33,090 nucleotides of DNA from Candidatus Nomurabacteria bacterium (GTDB lineage: Bacteria; Patescibacteriota; Minisyncoccia; Phycocordibacterales; UBA2100): contig CALRIB010000002.1 in NCBI GenBank assembly GCA_943359705.1, positions 1-33,090 on the forward strand, given 5' to 3'. Shown one piece after another: positions 2,938 to 24,841 of this stretch. Each line of letters begins with the position of its first letter. Position 1 is the stretch's first letter. The notes under the pieces are model-generated. The model had not been told where the DNA came from. It did no database searches and was given only the letters and a program-made list of their open reading frames with translations. Both the position numbers and the translations under genes were made by a program.

Positions 2938-3136
2938 GGCGGCCGTCGGGAATCTCCCTCGCCTCTCGGTTCGCCGCCGCGAGGAATCGGTCACAGATAT
3001 CCCATCCGCCGCCGCGGATGGGATTCCGCGACCCCGGCTCGCGGTTTCGGCCGCTGCCGAAACATCGCTGCGCCTTTCGATTCCCTCACCATAGGTGCGA
3101 AGGCACCTATGGTGCGTCCGCCTTCACTTCGTTCAG
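2938..3136 (-). repeat. tRNA-His trailer element, proximal unit (unit 2), ending in a perfect orphan copy of the tRNA-His 3' end
   Basis: Starts right after tRNA-His 3' end (3137). Contains a 12-bp hairpin (3087-3114), hairpin 3044-3063, 14-mer GCGACCCCGGCTCG (3028-3041) and a 26-nt hairpin (2999-3024). Then GTGACC + degenerate tRNA 3' end (2972-2988, 12/17), followed by a perfect 17-nt GATTCCCGACGGCCGCC copy at 2938-2954. Confidence 0.75.
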
Positions 3137-3209
3137 GGCGGCCGTCGGGAATCGAACCCGAATTGAGAGCTCCACAAGCTCCAGTGTGAACCGTTACACC
3201 ACGGTCGCC
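3137..3209 (-). tRNA. tRNA-His (anticodon GUG)
   Basis: Hand-folded cloverleaf on minus strand: G-1 plus GCGACCG acceptor (one A4:C69 mismatch), D arm GTGT/ACAC, anticodon stem GGAGC/GCTCT with loop TTGTGGA, T arm TCGGG-TTCGATT-CCCGA. No encoded CCA. Confidence 0.85.
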
Positions 3210-6020: not shown

Positions 6021-6698
6021 TCACAGCTTCTCCTCCACTGTACCCAAAATCTTCTTTAATTTCAATCTCTTCCGAGAAAGACACACGACGCTCTTCGAAT
6101 AGTACATTTTTCTTAAAACGACTAGAGAATCTTTTTTAGCGTACTTTAGCTGGTAGAGCACGCGATTGGCACTTCCCGATGTCACGTGTCCAGATACGCC
6201 TGTCCGTTTTCTTATTTCACTTCGAAGCCAATCAACAAACGATTTGCTAGCAGAAGCGAATATCGTATAGAACATAAAACTTGAACGCCAGCGCGGATCC
6301 CAATAGGCATGAGAACATCCATCACCGTCGTACACTCCCCTAAGAAAATCCCAAAAGTACGCGGGAGGAATTTTCAAAGGACCGATTGTCTTGGACTTTC
6401 TCGGTGTAAGACCTATTGAAAGCAGGAAATCATAAAAGACTACATTTTTGAATTGTACGCGTAGGTATTCTTTTCCATTGCTCCCCTTCTTTTTCGTGAT
6501 ATTGAAATCTACTCCGATACATATACGAAAATTGTCGAGCTGTTCGCGATCTGCAGACGTAAGATCGATGAGCGAGAATGGGGGTGAAAGGCAGCCATCG
6601 GTAGCGAGTAGCCCAATCGCGTAAGCGAGTTTTGCTGACCAGGTTTGATCTATTTTTCTTCTTGCATTAAATCCCGGTTTCGGACCCCGCTTCCCCAT
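6021..6698 (-). CDS. LAGLIDADG-family homing endonuclease (two-motif, single chain)
   Basis: Two motifs, LAYAIGLLATDGCLS and FLRGVYDGDGCSHA. Visibly lower GC than its neighbours. Stop is 9 nt upstream of the tRNA-Leu 5' end. TGaTATCAT box (6705-6713) 6 nt upstream of the ATG. Confidence 0.85.
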   Translation of the reverse strand: MGKRGPKPGFNARRKIDQTWSAKLAYAIGLLATDGCLSPPFSLIDLTSADREQLDNFRICIGVDFNITKKKGSNGKEYLRVQFKNVVFYDFLLSIGLTPRKSKTIGPLKIPPAYFWDFLRGVYDGDGCSHAYWDPRWRSSFMFYTIFASASKSFVDWLRSEIRKRTGVSGHVTSGSANRVLYQLKYAKKDSLVVLRKMYYSKSVVCLSRKRLKLKKILGTVEEKL

Positions 6699-7251: not shown

Positions 7252-7372
7252 ATGTTATTTTATAGCTGACTTGCTTGCTGGGAAGTGAAAACGAGTTTTC
7301 ACTTCTCTCGCTGCGCTGCGCCAGACCGCGGCACTATAGCAGAGGCGCCGTCGGAAAACAACTTATTTCCTT

Positions 7373-7506
7373 GGTGCGCGGTGAGGGATTTGGTCACGCG
7401 TCGTTTTCTGTTGAAAACGCGCGCGACCCCGCCTCGGCCCGGCCTCCGGCTTTCAAATCCTGCCCCCAACGCAAAAGCACCCGCGGGGGGTGCTTTGTGC
7501 ATCGGG
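7373..7506 (-). repeat. tRNA-Val trailer element ending in an orphan copy of the tRNA-Val 3' end
   Basis: 20-nt direct repeat GGTGCGCGGTGAGGGATTTG at 7373-7392 and 7505-7524 (the latter is the real tRNA-Val 3' end plus 2 nt). Between them: terminator-like hairpin (7474-7496), 14-mer GCGACCCCGCCTCG (7423-7436), 27-nt hairpin (7397-7423), then GTGACC (7392-7397). Confidence 0.7.
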
Positions 7507-7578
7507 TGCGCGGTGAGGGATTTGAACCCCCGACCCTCCCCGTGTAAAGGGGTTGCTCTACCACTGAGCTAACCGCGC
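7507..7578 (-). tRNA. tRNA-Val (anticodon UAC)
   Basis: Acceptor GCGCGGT/ACCGCGC, D arm GCTC-AGTGGTA-GAGC, anticodon loop TTTACAC, T arm GGGGG-TTCAAAT-CCCTC. Confidence 0.85.
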
Positions 7579-7624
7579 ATCTATTTACTGCGCTACGTGT
7601 GCGCAACGGCTCTTCCGAGCCGGG

Positions 7625-7696
7625 TGCCCTCGCGAGGAATCGAACCTCGAATAGCGGCTTAGAAGTCCGCAGTTATATCCATTTAACTACGAGGGC
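7625..7696 (-). tRNA. tRNA-Arg (anticodon UCU)
   Basis: Acceptor GCCCTCG/CGAGGGC, D arm GTTA-AATGGATA-TAAC, anticodon loop CTTCTAA (one A31:G39 mismatch in the stem), 4-nt variable loop, T arm CGAGG-TTCGATT-CCTCG. Confidence 0.8.
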
Positions 7697-8001
7697 AATT
7701 TGCTTCTTCCCCACGAACCGAATTGCACATAGGTCTTCCGCCTGTGGCAATTCGCACATCTTATCTCACATTTTTCTATCTCGCTAAGAAGGGACTTCCA
7801 TGACCAATGCCCGGATAACATTCTAGCTATAGTCTTGAACTTCTTTTTAGTATCCGTGTGATCAAATTCTAGAACGATTGGATCGTTTTCACCGCAATCC
7901 GCGCATTTCTTAGACGACAAGAATTCCAGCAATGCCCGCCGAATCCGGACTCGATGTCTCTTTTGTGCCGCATACAAGTCTGTTCTATTTTTGTAGGCCA
8001 C
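7687..8001 (-). CDS. HNH endonuclease (small, free-standing)
   Basis: CADCG...LEFDHTD...CEIRCANCHRRKT (Cys4 plus HNH core). Low GC. GTG start at 8001 with TGaTATAAT (8008-8016) 6 nt upstream. Last 10 nt overlap the tRNA-Arg(UCU) 5' end. Confidence 0.8.
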   Translation of the reverse strand: MAYKNRTDLYAAQKRHRVRIRRALLEFLSSKKCADCGENDPIVLEFDHTDTKKKFKTIARMLSGHWSWKSLLSEIEKCEIRCANCHRRKTYVQFGSWGRSKLPS

Positions 8002-9449: not shown

Positions 9450-9498
9450 GGAACTAGTGCGTAGTGGCTAGTGCGTAGTTGGTAGAAAAATACATAGT

Positions 9499-14123: not shown

Positions 14124-14603
14124 TCAATCATTACCTTTCAACCAACTCTTTTCAAGGTGGTGCTCTTCGTAATGACAATTCGGGCAAACGAGCTCGAGAT
14201 TACTTGAATCGTTGTTCTTCCGGTTTCTATCTTTGTGATGCACATGCAATATTTCTTTCTTGTTGTAGCCGCATCGCTCGCAAGAGCCTCCCCGCTCCTC
14301 CAGAAGCCTGATTTTCATCGCCCGCTCGGCGACAACCTTATCACGCGGCCGACCGATCTTGTAGTGAATTCCTGTGCGATATTTATTCGAGCACGCACGG
14401 CTACAAGTTATTCTGTGCAAACTTGCGAGAATCGGCTTCGCACAAACGACACACGGTGACTCGTTCCGACTTGAGATACCGTAACATGCCTGGCCACAAT
14501 AGGCTCTGCCACTAGTAGCAGCGAGCTGAACAGGTCGACGATAAATTTGCTTACCGCAAATCGTGCACTTTGTATTTGGATTTCTTTTATACCGCTCCGC
14601 CAT
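14124..14603 (-). CDS. HNH endonuclease with N-terminal Cys-rich (zinc-finger-like) region
   Basis: Start set at ATG 14603 (MAERYKRNPNTKCTICGK...). ...CERCGYNKKEILHVHHKDRNRKNNDSSNLELVCPNCHYEEH is the HNH core. Low GC. TGgTATACT (14610-14618) 6 nt upstream. Stop 4 nt before the tRNA-Ser 5' end. The track extension to 14924 overlaps the HD gene. Confidence 0.8.
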   Translation of the reverse strand: MAERYKRNPNTKCTICGKQIYRRPVQLAATSGRAYCGQACYGISSRNESPCVVCAKPILASLHRITCSRACSNKYRTGIHYKIGRPRDKVVAERAMKIRLLEERGGSCERCGYNKKEILHVHHKDRNRKNNDSSNLELVCPNCHYEEHHLEKSWLKGND

Positions 14604-14641
14604 TCGGCCAGTATACCAGTTTTCCTTTACTCCAAGCGGGG

Positions 14642-15283
14642 CTATTCGCTCTCGCTGCCCGCAGCATCTATCCACTCGACTCCGGCTTTCTCGAACTGCG
14701 TCTTTAAATCTTTCTTTACTGCATCGAGCAGGTCCTTGAGCTCCGGAAAAGGTCGCGTTGCTTCGTCGAATGCGGCGACGGCGGCATCGGCGTACGACGC
14801 GTGGAATTCTTTGGGTATGTACATCTCCACGCCGCCTTCGGCGATATGCAGAAATCCCTCGATCTTGTCGAGCGCACGCACGAACCGCGCTTCTACCGTC
14901 CGCTGGTCGGTGTATTCGCGCCACAAATCGTAGACGGATTTTCCAAATGCTATGTCCCCCGTCATCTCACGCATCGCCTCGTCTTCTTTGGCCGTTTTGC
15001 GGACGGTCATTTTTTTCCCGGCGAGCATTTGCTCGTATGCGTCGATATCCCCGGTCTTCGCCTCCCCGAGGTCATGGACGAGGGCGAGCGAAAGCGTGCG
15101 ACCCATGTTGAGGCGCACCCTACACTCCGGGCCAATGATGAGCGCCATAAGCGCCAGGCGCCACGAATGCGCGGCGACCGTGTTTTGCTTGCCCCGTAGC
15201 GACGCGCCGTAGCGCTCGATGCTCTCGAGCTCCTTCGTGCGTCGCAGAAATATGAGGATATCTTCCATTTCCCGTCGTTTCAT
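14642..15283 (-). CDS. HD-domain phosphohydrolase, YfbR-like 5'-deoxynucleotidase
   Basis: ...NTVAAHSWRLALMALII...LALVHDLGEAKTGDI... (H...HD...D metal ligands in YfbR-like spacing). Confidence 0.7.
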   Translation of the reverse strand: MKRREMEDILIFLRRTKELESIERYGASLRGKQNTVAAHSWRLALMALIIGPECRVRLNMGRTLSLALVHDLGEAKTGDIDAYEQMLAGKKMTVRKTAKEDEAMREMTGDIAFGKSVYDLWREYTDQRTVEARFVRALDKIEGFLHIAEGGVEMYIPKEFHASYADAAVAAFDEATRPFPELKDLLDAVKKDLKTQFEKAGVEWIDAAGSESE

Positions 15284-17688: not shown

Positions 17689-18087
17689 AGCCACTAGCCA
17701 CTAGTTCTTAGCCACTAGCGAGCCGATGAGTTTATTTAACATACGCATGACCTCATCTATGAGCGTTTTCGCTCTTTTCAACTGATGCGGGTCGGCAAAT
17801 TTTAGGTTTTCAGCGATTTCAAAATGTGTCTCTAACTCCGCCCCCGAACCGAACGCAATCCTCAAGAATTGAATATTTTCCTGCCGATGCTTGCGCGCGA
17901 ATCCTTCCGCAATATTCGCGGGAATTGACACCGCAGCCCTCCGTGTTTGGCTTGTCAGACCAAACATTTCTGAGCGTGGGTATCGTTCTGTGAGTTTATA
18001 AACTTCGCTGACTAATTCGATGCCGCGTTGCCAAACAACAAGTTCTCGGTACGACTGCATTTTTCTAGTCGCTAGTGGCTAGTGGCT
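17689..18087. mobile_element. Cassette: four-helix-bundle gene bracketed by perfect 16-bp inverted repeats
   Basis: AGCCACTAGCCACTAG at 17689-17704 and its exact reverse complement CTAGTGGCTAGTGGCT at 18072-18087. Extra partial copies at 17710-17723 and 18065-18075. Interior is lower in GC than the flanks. Confidence 0.45.
17701..18060 (-). CDS. Four-helix-bundle protein (23S rRNA intervening-sequence protein family)
   Basis: MQSYRELVVWQRGIELVSEVYKLTERYPRSEMFGLTSQTRRAAVSIPANIAEGFARKHRQENIQFLRIAFGSGAELETH... is the family signature. Confidence 0.85.
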   Translation of the reverse strand: MQSYRELVVWQRGIELVSEVYKLTERYPRSEMFGLTSQTRRAAVSIPANIAEGFARKHRQENIQFLRIAFGSGAELETHFEIAENLKFADPHQLKRAKTLIDEVMRMLNKLIGSLVAKN

Positions 18088-20152
18088 AAATCACTGTAAC
18101 CGTGGTGCTTGCGTCGCGGGTACCTCCGCCGACTGTGACACAGTGGAGCACGAACGCATACGAGGTGGTTGCCGTTTTCGTCAGAGGCGGCGTGGTCGCA
18201 GTGCCGTTGACGTTGGTGTTGCCCGCATTTTGCGTGGTGAACGCCGGAATGTCCGGGCTCGAAATCACGCACGATTGCATGCCGGAGGTAATCCAGCCGA
18301 GCGCCGATTGGCCGCCCGATGCGACATCCTTCGGATTCGCGATGAGGACGATGGAGGGCTTGCCGACCTGGACCGAACACTGCGCAGTGGCCACTGTGCC
18401 CGCACTGTTACAGGTGAGGCCGTATGAAGCGCTGTTGCTGCCTGCGGCGGGATTGGTCGTAGTTGCGAGCGCCGAACCGCTTTGCGCGCCGTTCGTTTGA
18501 AAGCCCGTGCCCGTGCTGGTGCCTGCAGAGCACGAGTACGCGATCGCGATAGACATGCCGACGTCGGCCACTTGCGGATTGCATGATATTTGCGCGGTGA
18601 GAGAGCCGTTGGTGCCGGTACCCGTGCCGCTCGGCACGCACTGCCAGCTCCCCACGCACGCGCCGTTGTACGTGGGCTTCCATGTACCGTTGGCACATCC
18701 GGCCGGGTCAGGTTGTGCGGGTGCCGTCGGGCACTGCTGCGCGGTCGCACATGCGTTGCCCGCAGGCGCGCAGCCGGTGGGGCACGTCTGCATCGGCGTA
18801 TCCACGCACTGATTGTTGCGCGAGTAGAGCGTGTTGTTGGAACAGAGGAGCTGTCCACCCGGGCATGTGCCCGGCGCTTGCGGCGTCTGATTCCCCGCCG
18901 CCGGTGAAGCAGACCCTCCTGGCGAGCCACCCATCAGACCCTTCAACATCGATGCGATGTCCGGCATTCCACTCTTGTTCTGATTATTATTGTTGTTATT
19001 GTCCTGCGGATCCTGCTGGAACGTAGTCTGCTGCCGCTTTGTCGGATCCGGCTGCGCAGTGGTCGTCGTTTTGGTCGGATCCGGCTTGGGAGTGGTCGTC
19101 GTTTTGGTTGGATCAGGAGCCGGAGCTTTGGCGGGAGGTGTACATACCTGATTGGGGTCGCCGGCGGATGCGGTGCACGTAAACCCTTTTGCAGTCAGTT
19201 CATCTACGTTCGCGTCCCTGGCCGGATAACATCCAGTTTTGTCACAATTATATTTTGCCGCATCGACGCCTGCCATCGGATTCGCATTCGGCCCGGATTG
19301 TGCCGCTGCCAAAGCGTCATACCTATCTTGCGCCTCTTTTGCAGCGGCCTGCGCCTTTGCGGCGTCGGCCTGAGCTTGTGCTGCATTCGCGGCTGCGTTC
19401 GCACATCCCGGGCTCGATGTGTCGCCACCGAATGCACAGCTCGAAGCAATGTCGTCTAGCTTAGCGGCCGTTGATTGGGCAGTTGCGGCGGCCGTGGCAG
19501 CGTCAACAAGATTCTTTTTTGCTTCGGCCGTCAGCGCGTCATTAAGAACGCTACGCTCTGTCTCACCGAGTGAGCTCATGAGAGACTGTTGCTGATCCGA
19601 GGGTAGGGTTTTAAATACATCAGGGTTCGCCGCGGCGCTTTTTATACCGGCGATACCAGATACCGCGCCCGTGTCGAGGCATTTCTTATCATCGGGGGTG
19701 CAGTACTGTGTTTTGCACGTGCCTGCCGGGACATCGGCGCTAAGCTTCGAAACAACTTTTCCCGTACCGTCTTTTTGTATGTAAATTTTTGACGTCAACC
19801 CCACGCATATCGCGTCTTGCTCTCCGGTATAGAGAGCTGCGGTGCAGTTATCTTTCTGGACCGTATCTTGCCCTTTTGGCAGACCTGTTTCTTGCGGTGT
19901 GGTGCTTTTCTTTTGCGCTAGAGCCTGTTGCTTCAACGCAGTACATTTCTCTGCCATCTCTTTTTTTCGCGGATCCGCAGGGGGAACAGGGATCGTGTAT
20001 GTCGCCTCGTTGTATCTCGGAGCATCTGCAAGCTGCGATGCTGGTTGAACATTAAGGAATTCTGCAGCACCCGCAGCGCCGAGCATTGCCATTAGGACGA
20101 GGCTGGCAAGTATAGATGCGCCACGTTGACCCCGGTCGGCGGGTAAAGACAT
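18086..20152 (-). CDS. Large secreted/anchored Cys-rich protein with low-complexity linker and two C-terminal Ig-like repeats
   Basis: 688 aa. N-terminal hydrophobic anchor (ASILASLVLMAMLGAAGAA), many Cys, PDPTKTTTT repeats, N6 tract, Met/Lys motif MPDIASMLKGLMGG. C-terminal repeats with W-x-[ST]-x-G-x-x-SC pattern. TATCAT (20159-20164) 6 nt upstream of the ATG. Confidence 0.7.
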   Translation of the reverse strand: MSLPADRGQRGASILASLVLMAMLGAAGAAEFLNVQPASQLADAPRYNEATYTIPVPPADPRKKEMAEKCTALKQQALAQKKSTTPQETGLPKGQDTVQKDNCTAALYTGEQDAICVGLTSKIYIQKDGTGKVVSKLSADVPAGTCKTQYCTPDDKKCLDTGAVSGIAGIKSAAANPDVFKTLPSDQQQSLMSSLGETERSVLNDALTAEAKKNLVDAATAAATAQSTAAKLDDIASSCAFGGDTSSPGCANAAANAAQAQADAAKAQAAAKEAQDRYDALAAAQSGPNANPMAGVDAAKYNCDKTGCYPARDANVDELTAKGFTCTASAGDPNQVCTPPAKAPAPDPTKTTTTPKPDPTKTTTTAQPDPTKRQQTTFQQDPQDNNNNNNQNKSGMPDIASMLKGLMGGSPGGSASPAAGNQTPQAPGTCPGGQLLCSNNTLYSRNNQCVDTPMQTCPTGCAPAGNACATAQQCPTAPAQPDPAGCANGTWKPTYNGACVGSWQCVPSGTGTGTNGSLTAQISCNPQVADVGMSIAIAYSCSAGTSTGTGFQTNGAQSGSALATTTNPAAGSNSASYGLTCNSAGTVATAQCSVQVGKPSIVLIANPKDVASGGQSALGWITSGMQSCVISSPDIPAFTTQNAGNTNVNGTATTPPLTKTATTSYAFVLHCVTVGGGTRDASTTVTVI

Positions 20153-20352
20153 CGCTCAATGATACTCCCTTTATTGCGCTGAACGTCGGCTAAATGTGGA
20201 AAAAGCTGGCGAAACGAACGATGCGCTGCATTTGTCTGTGCCCTTCGCCAACTGGGAAACCCACGGTTTTCCCAATCCTTCCTCCACGGGAAACCGGCAG
20301 GTTTCCCGACCCCTTCCTCCGGCGAGGTCATCTCGCTCACTTCGTTCGCTTG

Positions 20353-20424
20353 TGCCCTCGCCGGGAATCGAACCCAGATTACAAGCTCCGCAAGCTTGCG
20401 TTCTATCCGTTGAACTACGAGAGC
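20353..20424 (-). tRNA. tRNA-Arg (anticodon GCG)
   Basis: Acceptor GCTCTCG/CGAGGGC (one G:U), D arm GTTC-AACGGATA-GAAC, anticodon stem CAAGC/GCTTG with loop TTGCGGA, T arm CTGGG-TTCGATT-CCCGG. Confidence 0.8.
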
Positions 20425-24623: not shown

Positions 24624-24696
24624 CCGCCCATAGCTCAGTTGGTAGAGCAGCTCCCTTTTAAGGAGACGGTCGTAGGTTCGATTCCTACTGGGCGGA
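24624..24696 (+). tRNA. tRNA-Lys (anticodon UUU)
   Basis: Acceptor CCGCCCA/TGGGCGG (unusual C1:G72), D arm GCTC-AGTTGGTA-GAGC, anticodon stem GCTCC/GGAGA with loop CTTTTAA, T arm GTAGG-TTCGATT-CCTAC. Confidence 0.8.
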
Positions 24697-24834
24697 CACG
24701 AATGAAAAACAGCACCTGCGTGCTGTTTTTCTTTACGTGTCCGAGCCGGAGCCATGTTTCGTCAGCAGACGAAACGGGCGAGGCAGGGTCGTGGAATTTT
24801 GCGAGCGGCGGCGAGCAAAATATCCCTGACGACC
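24697..24834 (+). repeat. tRNA-Lys trailer element (same family as the His/Val elements)
   Basis: Same order as behind tRNA-His: long hairpin (24705-24730), 8-bp hairpin GTTTCGTC-agca-GACGAAAC (24756-24775), 14-mer CGAGGCAGGGTCGT (24779-24792, the reverse complement of ACGACCCTGCCTCG), 26-nt hairpin with GC-GGCG-GC apex (24796-24821), then CCCTGAC (24824-24830). Confidence 0.6.
24705..24735 (+). terminator. Rho-independent terminator after tRNA-Lys (also first hairpin of the trailer element)
   Basis: AAAAACAGCAC-ctgc-GTGCTGTTTTT followed by CTTT. Confidence 0.7.
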
Positions 24835-24841
24835 AACTAGA

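Follow-up and report, generated by a model that had tools for sequence, protein, structure and literature searches.

RESULTS

The tRNA-Val locus and its 132 bp insert

The window, by which we mean the whole stretch of 33,090 nt that was analysed, carries on its minus strand between positions 7373 and 7579 an intact tRNA-Val gene, which is followed by a structured segment and by a second copy of the gene's own 3' end (Table 1). An earlier note on this DNA had drawn attention to a 20-mer, GGTGCGCGGTGAGGGATTTG, present twice at this locus. Both exact copies were recovered, and no third match was found in the window even when up to two mismatches were allowed (0 expected from 100 shuffles). The placement of the tRNA gene by ARAGORN and Rfam identifies the proximal copy of the repeat (X) as the part of the gene itself that runs from C56 through the 3' end and 2 nt beyond. 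The insert spans positions 7393-7524, with a cargo of 112 bp, and its 3' boundary is ...GTGAC; read on the tRNA strand, the junction with the distal copy, hereafter the orphan, is ...GCGTGAC|CAAATCC and lies directly 5' of C56.

Behind the tRNA gene lies a terminator-like trailer hairpin, which was not flagged by a simple terminator scan. It is followed by a short antisense segment (X'), whose reverse complement, TTCAAATCC, corresponds to tRNA positions 54-62, and by a conserved core of ~58 nt that consists of two hairpins and has GTGAC as its terminus. According to both the predicted fold and a covariance model, the beginning of the orphan is the pairing partner of X', and the resulting helix, P1, closes a three-way junction; the first 7 nt of the orphan provide the 3' strand of this helix. 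The 3-bp helix P2 at the base of the first hairpin (hpA) covaries (GCC/GGC versus GGC/GCC). In the long hairpin hpB the fourth pair is an invariant G.U, and a single A bulges out 9 nt ahead of the 3' boundary. The 14-mer GCGACCCCGCCTCG (7423-7436) and the adjoining hairpin, both of which had been pointed out in the earlier note, are genuine and represent the 5' strand and the stem of hpB, that is, part of the conserved core. Further downstream, a conserved TATAGTGCCGCG(AC) block at positions 7312-7335 is found upstream of rplS in all relatives and is probably the promoter or leader of rplS; the tRNA-Val element is located between the tRNA gene and this block.

Table 1. Positions of the features at the tRNA-Val locus, of all copies detected in the window, and of the GCAAG-junction subfamily (window coordinates unless another locus is named)
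Feature	Position	Strand	Basis
tRNA-Val(tac), intact	7504-7579	minus	ARAGORN; Rfam tRNA, 68.2 bits
X, proximal copy (tRNA positions 56-75)	7505-7524	minus	exact 20-mer
Trailer hairpin supplied by the element, GCACAAAGCACCC-CCCGC-GGGTGCTTTTGCG, terminator-like	7470-7500	minus	fold; missing from the L258 empty site
Antisense segment X' (GGGGGCAGGATTTG) plus AAA, 5' strand of helix P1	7451-7467	minus	
P2/hpA, GCC-GGA-(hairpin)-GA-GGC	7431-7450	minus	
GGG linker plus long hairpin hpB (GTCGCG...CGTGAC)	7393-7430 (hpB 7393-7427)	minus	
X, distal copy (displaced native tRNA-Val 3' end, C56 onward)	7373-7392	minus	exact 20-mer; flank homology with L258
tRNA-Val copy	7383-7462	minus	covariance model R1, 86.6 bits
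His-1 (core plus P1), behind tRNA-His (3136-3208)	2980-3086	minus	R1, 54.9 bits, E 6e-13
His-2	2781-2887	minus	R1, 52.7 bits
Lys copy, behind tRNA-Lys(ttt) (24624-24697)	24733-24840	plus	R1, 41.9 bits, E 2e-9
GCAAG-junction subfamily, L019	7392-7466		
GCAAG-junction subfamily, L071	6374-6456		
GCAAG-junction subfamily, L219	645-741	minus	
GCAAG-junction subfamily, L160	2609-2711	minus	

Other copies in the window

A search of the window with the covariance model R1, which was built from an alignment of 27 compact copies, returned exactly four copies (E <= 2e-9), the next match scoring 13 bits; the fourth, behind tRNA-Lys, had gone unmentioned in the earlier note. Two copies lie in tandem behind tRNA-His, where a 94-nt repeat (2861-2954 and 3060-3153) is found, and their junctions are ...CTGTGAC|CGATTCC and ...TCCTGAC|CGATTCC. 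The junction GTGAC|C56, which had been described as common to the Val and His loci, thus appears twice behind tRNA-His in the form YTGAC|C56. The distal unit, His-2, overlaps a decayed ancestral tRNA-His 3' end (2774-2790), which begins directly after the end of the His-2 core (2791), while the first 12 nt of the tail behind the proximal unit match tRNA-Arg(tct) and not the tRNA-His end. The Lys copy represents a class that is joined at the very 3' end of the tRNA, with GAC as its repeat. In total, 3 of the 7 tRNA genes in this 33-kb window are occupied by the element and a fourth carries a related variant.

This variant is a distinct module on the minus strand (20238-20351) behind tRNA-Arg(gcg) (20352-20424). 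It consists of GGAGGAAGGGGTCGGGAAACC..GGTTTCCCGTGGAGG, a second hairpin and an orphan acceptor strand, GGCGAAGGGCAC (20238-20249), and it was not detected by R1; a module of the same type is also present behind a tRNA-Ile in L207. Several elements that follow different tRNAs (His, Arg, Leu and Val) have in common, at their left end and directly 3' of the tRNA, the motif (T)GAACGAAGTGA(A/G)G, which was seen at window positions 3122-3135 and 20334-20349, in L137 and in the second unit of L253.

Several other features of the window adjoin tRNA genes. A 225-aa ORF with a weak LAGLIDADG match (6021-6698, minus strand) is located between rplS and tRNA-Leu(gag) and is also present in L253, but is missing in L251, L254 and L258, where tRNA-Leu directly follows rplS; it is possibly a free-standing homing-endonuclease gene. 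HNH-nuclease-like ORFs are found on the minus strand at 14124-14924 and 7687-8001. One of them scores above the Pfam threshold and lies beside tRNA-Ser(tga), and one is a weak match upstream of tRNA-Arg(tct), where relatives have no ORF. In addition, short intergenic repeats of the CTAGTG(G/C)CTAGTG type occur in direct and inverted orientation (9454-9487, 17695-17718 and 18065-18088).

Empty sites in related genomes

The orthologous locus, pilM...tRNA-Arg-tRNA-Val-rplS, was recovered from relatives within the Candidatus Kaiserbacteria group. It had been proposed that tRNA-Val loci without the segment should be sought in relatives, and such loci do exist: the core is absent from L250 and L251/L252, and in L258 the tRNA-Val gene has the same 3' end (...GGGGGTTCAAATCCCTCACCGCGCAC) and continues directly into AAAAGTTGTTTTCT...TATAGTGCCGCGAC. 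In the window it is the orphan that is followed by AAGGAAATAAGTTGTTTTCC...TATAGTGCCGCGG, and this flank is homologous to the flank of the L258 empty site. We therefore conclude that 132 bp have been inserted in the window and that the orphan is the displaced native 3' end of the gene. Occupied sites are also found among the relatives, with a 3'-end-class copy behind this tRNA in L254 and, in L253, two T-loop units, behind each of which the orphan CGAATCCCTCAGCGCGCAC is present.

The His locus is likewise polymorphic for the presence of the element, L251 and L254 being empty. The distal His orphan of the window and its flank (CGATTCCCGGTTCTCCCAGAAGATATATACTTG...) are homologous to the tRNA-His end and flank of L251, which identifies them as the end of the ancestral gene; the first 10 nt of this orphan are intact and its acceptor part has decayed. 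At the strain level no polymorphism was seen, as three other assemblies of the same strain contain an identical element. The Logan contigs of this strain terminate inside tRNA genes. Metagenomes that contain the strain include ERZ27280297, ERR5863107 and ERR3719144. In the close relative L259 (560-700; L19 88% identical), tRNA-Arg and tRNA-Val are missing upstream of rplS and the sequence ...ACGGTGCACC|AAGTTGTTTTCT is retained, in which an orphan-like tRNA end is fused to the native trailer. This junction suggests a rearrangement at the tRNA-Arg/Val site.

A family of structured elements in tRNA 3' ends

In a pattern scan of one genome per species, ~29 real members, a lower bound, were identified among the 120 matches listed. 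These members, at least ~29 in number, belong to Saccharibacteria, Paceibacterota, Adlerbacteria, Zambryskiibacteria, Parcubacteria and other Patescibacteria and are thus nearly all from CPR bacteria, the non-CPR members among the genome matches listed being two Elusimicrobia copies. A metagenome scan with a stricter pattern yielded at least 120 loci, and in 100 of these R1 confirmed 91 copies. A phage origin was considered and rejected, as the nine pattern matches in IMG/VR are chance matches in high-GC coding sequence.

The core, which together with its antisense stretch had been absent from the earlier note, is conserved as a structure. In the 27 compact copies 87.7% of the cells are paired and the covariation score is 0.485, compared with 0.174 after shuffling and ~0.1 with slid partners; the corresponding values for the 91 metagenome copies are 89.4% and 0.587, compared with 0.172 after shuffling. 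The core is therefore under selection for structure. In hpB, 88 of 90 sequences have G.U as the fourth pair, and the sixth pair alternates between G-C (50) and G.U (37), a pattern that identifies the folded strand as the tRNA-sense strand. Conserved features include the element ends GTCGYG...YRTGAC with the junction GAC|X, purine-rich junctions, and the tetraloops GACG and AGCA, which are exchanged between the two hairpins in long versus compact forms of the core.

The genomic context was determined for a set of 104 pattern instances, ~9 of which are spurious; 64 of the 104 lie less than 400 nt downstream of a tRNA gene on the same strand, with a median gap of 57 nt. The sequence that follows ...TGAC repeats upstream sequence, and among the repeats of at least 6 nt, 24 begin at C56 and 8 at nucleotide 72. 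The suspected recurrence of GTGAC joined to a tRNA 3' half is thus strongly borne out by the 24 cases that begin at C56. The family has two insertion points in tRNA genes, T55|C56 and nucleotide 71|72, and some copies sit at the 3' ends of protein genes, so that the T-loop-to-3'-end segment proposed in the earlier note is not the only target of the family. Across the family the repeats measure from 3 to at least 58 nt; in young T-loop copies they are mostly 19-23 nt, which places the end of the repeat at or near that of the tRNA.

In 27/27 T-loop copies the complement of T54-T55 is part of the antisense stretch. This stretch matches the tRNA better than the orphan in 16 of these copies, both equally well in 10 and the orphan better in 1. 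X' extends 2 nt past the start of the orphan, and this offset is constant at T-loop and 3'-end sites. The trailer of many copies also contains the complement of the acceptor 3' strand, with a small hairpin in between. In a subfamily with a GCAAG junction, to which both Elusimicrobia copies belong, the upstream stem is closed and the copies are inserted in antisense orientation into T-loop-like sequence (GAC|TTGAACC or GAC|TCGAACC), with an antisense tRNA 3' end upstream; there is no duplication in this subfamily.

Some copies are informative with regard to what is enclosed. L057 has a 33-nt repeat within the 3' end of a protein gene, and the C-terminal coding sequence behind this repeat exists in two versions that have diverged from each other. 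At L183 (9001-10297), behind a tRNA-Gln, an ORF of 271 aa without a Pfam match is located between 21-nt repeats 1.2 kb apart, with the antisense stretch and core at the distal end, so that 1.1 kb of cargo is enclosed between X and X'. At L170 (2985-4100), behind a tRNA-Ser, an ORF resembling an IGPS fragment lies between two identical units. The diverged ends of L057, the cargo of L183 and the fact that repeats usually stop at the tRNA end favour a replacement 3' end carried by the element and recombination at the 5' edge of X, and disfavour duplication by a staggered cut.

DISCUSSION

In this study, we present a so far undescribed family of mobile elements, minute and highly structured, that insert into tRNA 3' ends in CPR bacteria; full-text literature searches returned no description of the element. 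The insertion, the duplication, the membership of a family, the structure with its strand specificity and the presence/absence polymorphism are demonstrated by the sequences. We consider it somewhat better than an even chance (probability about 0.55) that the segment at 7393-7524 is a miniature, non-autonomous integrative element that displaced the tRNA-Val 3' end, and that its recombination site is a folded single strand acted upon by an enzyme in trans. According to this mechanism, the element would bring along a copy of the tRNA segment that begins at C56 and runs to the 3' end, and with this replacement end the tRNA gene would stay whole. Within the single strand, presumably of DNA, the antisense stretch would pair with the tRNA-derived segment to form a helix of 8-9 bp, which would abut the long hairpin and close the three-way junction that serves as the recombination site. 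A putative enzyme encoded elsewhere would then cut at GAC|C56 and carry out a strand exchange with the tRNA gene at the same phosphodiester, T55|C56. Other members use nucleotide 71|72 of a tRNA or the 3' end of a protein gene as their site, can form tandem arrays and can hold an ORF between the replacement end and the core. A circle or tandem would join ...GTGAC to CAAATCCCTCACCGCGCACC+CGATGCAC, a circle or additional tandem unit of the tRNA-Val element would read ...GCGTGAC+CAAATCCCTCACCGCGCACC+CGATGCACAAAG, and a precise empty site would read GGGGGTTCAAATCCCTCACCGCGCACC+AAGGAAATAAG.

The earlier note had suggested an att-core duplication made by a recombinase. The insertion flanked by a tRNA 3'-end duplication from C56 is in agreement with this suggestion; the recombinase itself was not found. 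The 122 ORFs closest to the copies gave housekeeping families only and show no enrichment of integrases, transposases, HUH enzymes or reverse transcriptases, and none of these is present among the ORFs of the window. A recombinase in cis was therefore rejected, and the element is regarded as non-autonomous. The covarying core and the antisense stretch point away from an ordinary double-stranded att site, for which an antisense copy of the target and a covarying, strand-specific fold would both be superfluous, and towards a folded single strand; a site of the latter kind is therefore the most economical reading. However, several points count against it. No such enzyme is encoded near any copy and no excised form was seen, a circle of ~130 bp is too small for classical double-strand recombination, and the GCAAG subfamily without duplication does not fit the explanation as it stands. 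The tetraloops, the purine-rich junctions and the invariant G.U would equally fit a functional RNA. Furthermore, decayed orphans preserve the 8-10 nt that form P1 and have lost the remainder, and together with the finding that the match of X' to the tRNA is as good as its match to the orphan or better, this hints at a function in place and not in integration alone.

Such a function is the basis of a quite different explanation, namely that the core is primarily a functional RNA in the tRNA 3' trailer, an RNA switch or small ribozyme. The sense-antisense-sense arrangement would then offer X' two alternative partners, namely the T-arm of the tRNA itself and the orphan, the latter pairing closing the three-way junction, and this choice would control or process the tRNA 3' end, DNA mobility being the way in which the module spreads. 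The strand-specific fold with its invariant G.U and a second pair that is GC or GU, the conserved loops and junction purines, the two loop types swapped between hairpins in long and compact forms, and the complementarity of X' to the tRNA in 27/27 copies would all be consistent with this idea. So would the retention of the P1 part in old orphans whose acceptor part decays, and the compact copies of the 3'-end class, in which the spacer between tRNA and core is only a short hairpin without a U-tract. Nevertheless we consider it unlikely, as close relatives lack the element at the same tRNAs, many copies lie 3' of a good terminator hairpin, P1 has no excess of G.T over A.C (42 versus 52), and there is no Rfam match even at E <= 10. 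In addition, copies are found behind protein genes, whose coding ends are duplicated and diverged, and one encloses 1.1 kb of cargo between X and X'; these observations speak for inserted DNA and not for an RNA motif that evolved in place. Specific RNA candidates were also tried. Known ribozymes, riboswitches and group II domains were rejected because of the missing Rfam match and because the core, by eye, does not fit the hammerhead consensus, and an OMEGA/TnpB-like guide-RNA scaffold with a 3' guide was rejected since no effector is nearby and the tRNA-derived tail is paired with X'.

Another single-strand or hairpin mechanism, be it HUH-type (IS200/IS605 or REP/RAYT-like), a rolling hairpin or a guided recombinase with X' as its guide, would account for the sense-antisense-sense order, the T-shaped fold, the constant 2-nt offset of X' past the orphan start at T-loop and 3'-end sites, and a target choice that seems to be led by pairing and not by a fixed sequence. 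We nonetheless judge it improbable: no HUH, IS110 or other transposase is encoded among the 122 neighbouring ORFs, IS200/IS605 elements make no duplication, and the length of the repeat does not track that of the antisense stretch (Spearman -0.35). The same comparison, a noisy measure in which no positive correlation was seen, led us to reject a target-site duplication sized by the antisense stretch. Least probable by far is that the locus is a deletion remnant, an attL-attR scar of a larger prophage or island in tRNA-Val, or an immobile local tandem duplication. A duplication of the tRNA 3' end from the T-loop is indeed the classical signature of integration by an integrase, and sublocation classes of integrase-mediated integration in tRNA genes were reportedly described by Williams in 2002. 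However, one compact architecture, in which the core always adjoins the orphan, is common to more than 100 copies, four copies lie within 33 kb, the covariation of the core reflects structural selection, and there are no real matches in IMG/VR and no integrase nearby. The idea of a primer-binding site or CCA end, prompted by an orphan ending in ...ACCA and a gene ending in ...ACCC, was also discarded, as the A is the native trailer base in the L258 empty site and other orphans have no CCA.

Going beyond the miniature integrative element itself, we see a substantial, though less than even, chance that the core is a new fold class that directs site-specific insertion by base pairing and hence a categorically new, pairing-directed module. 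The antisense stretch would then select the target, be it the T-loop or the 3' end of a tRNA or the end of a gene, and strand transfer would fall 2 nt inside the duplex. Catalysis would be carried out by a putative enzyme or would be partly RNA- or DNA-catalysed, and the whole would amount to a dispersed, integron-like form of gene capture for CPR bacteria with tRNA genes as landing pads.

CPR bacteria (Patescibacteria) have tiny genomes and few recognised mobile elements and depend on DNA uptake, and the element is widespread across this radiation. Were it to act as a recombination module, it would provide these organisms with a main route to gene capture and rearrangement, and its target would be set by a short complementary stretch beside a ~60-nt fold, a design that might be reprogrammable. 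If the fold acts as RNA, it would constitute a new and abundant class of structured RNA tied to tRNA 3' ends. In practice, orphan tRNA ends and these repeats may confuse tRNA annotation and break assemblies.

Comparison with known systems

The core has no counterpart in Rfam, and the family departs in defining features from integrative elements, integrons, MITEs and group II introns and appears to differ from IS200/IS605 derivatives. With Rfam 15 only tRNAs reach threshold and nothing is found at E <= 10 on the short core region; the best score over the core is 21.5 bits (RNAI, E 0.03), on the opposite strand. Like MITEs, REP/BIME sequences and group IIC introns, the elements are small, non-autonomous, abundant, rich in hairpins and found after terminators at gene ends, but unlike all of these they appear to carry a replacement 3' end of the target gene. 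Moreover, they have neither the terminal inverted repeats nor the fixed-length target duplication of MITEs (repeats from 3 to at least 58 nt) and no REP GTAG motif. Unlike IS200/IS605 or REP/RAYT systems they show a duplication, and no Y1 HUH transposase is encoded among the 122 neighbouring ORFs. Group IIC introns differ by their domains 5/6, which are absent here, and no group II model in Rfam matches at E <= 1, nor at E <= 10; P2/hpA has 7 bp and a GACG loop, compared with the 34 nt, AGC/CGC triad and GNRA loop of group II domain 5. TIGR-Tas, another guide-RNA system, which has been reported in parasitic bacteria and in their phages, bears no relation in form to the family.

Prophages and islands that target tRNA genes share with the family the insertion into a tRNA, the block of identity from the T-loop or 3' end to the tRNA end, the apparent rebuilding of the gene by the element with downstream displacement of the native 3' end, and the tandem arrays. 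The direct repeat of a tRNA 3' segment that characterises tyrosine-integrase elements is present (20 nt from C56), and Phage_integrase gave no match in the ORFs of the window or the 122 ORFs flanking copies. In contrast to these prophages and islands, the unit measures 110-200 bp and not kilobases, has no integrase in cis, and has a covarying core, an antisense copy of its target and protein-gene 3' ends as additional targets.

For the folded site itself, we regard integron attC sites and the attP of CTX phage as the relevant parallels, and both are meant as analogies. As in attC, the site appears to be defined by a fold of one strand with a bulged base, in this case strand-specific G.U pairs and an invariant bulged A, and the base of the fold would be completed by neighbouring sequence. 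Cassette-like features may also be seen in the short direct repeats at the boundaries, the presence or absence of an ORF, the arrays and an enzyme in trans. Unlike attC, the family lacks R''/R' boxes (RYYYAAC/GTTRRRY; crossover G|TT) and forms a three-way junction and not a simple hairpin. Integrons differ further in having an intI/attI platform, whereas the targets here are tRNA genes dispersed in the genome with no integrase nearby, and the paired boundary sequence of the family varies and matches the target. The comparison with CTX phage and other IMEX would extend to a host-supplied enzyme and tandem arrays, although the family targets a tRNA gene and not dif and has no phage genes and no dif-like sequence. 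In both cases, sense and antisense copies of the target within one strand appear able to fold into a duplex that mimics the target.
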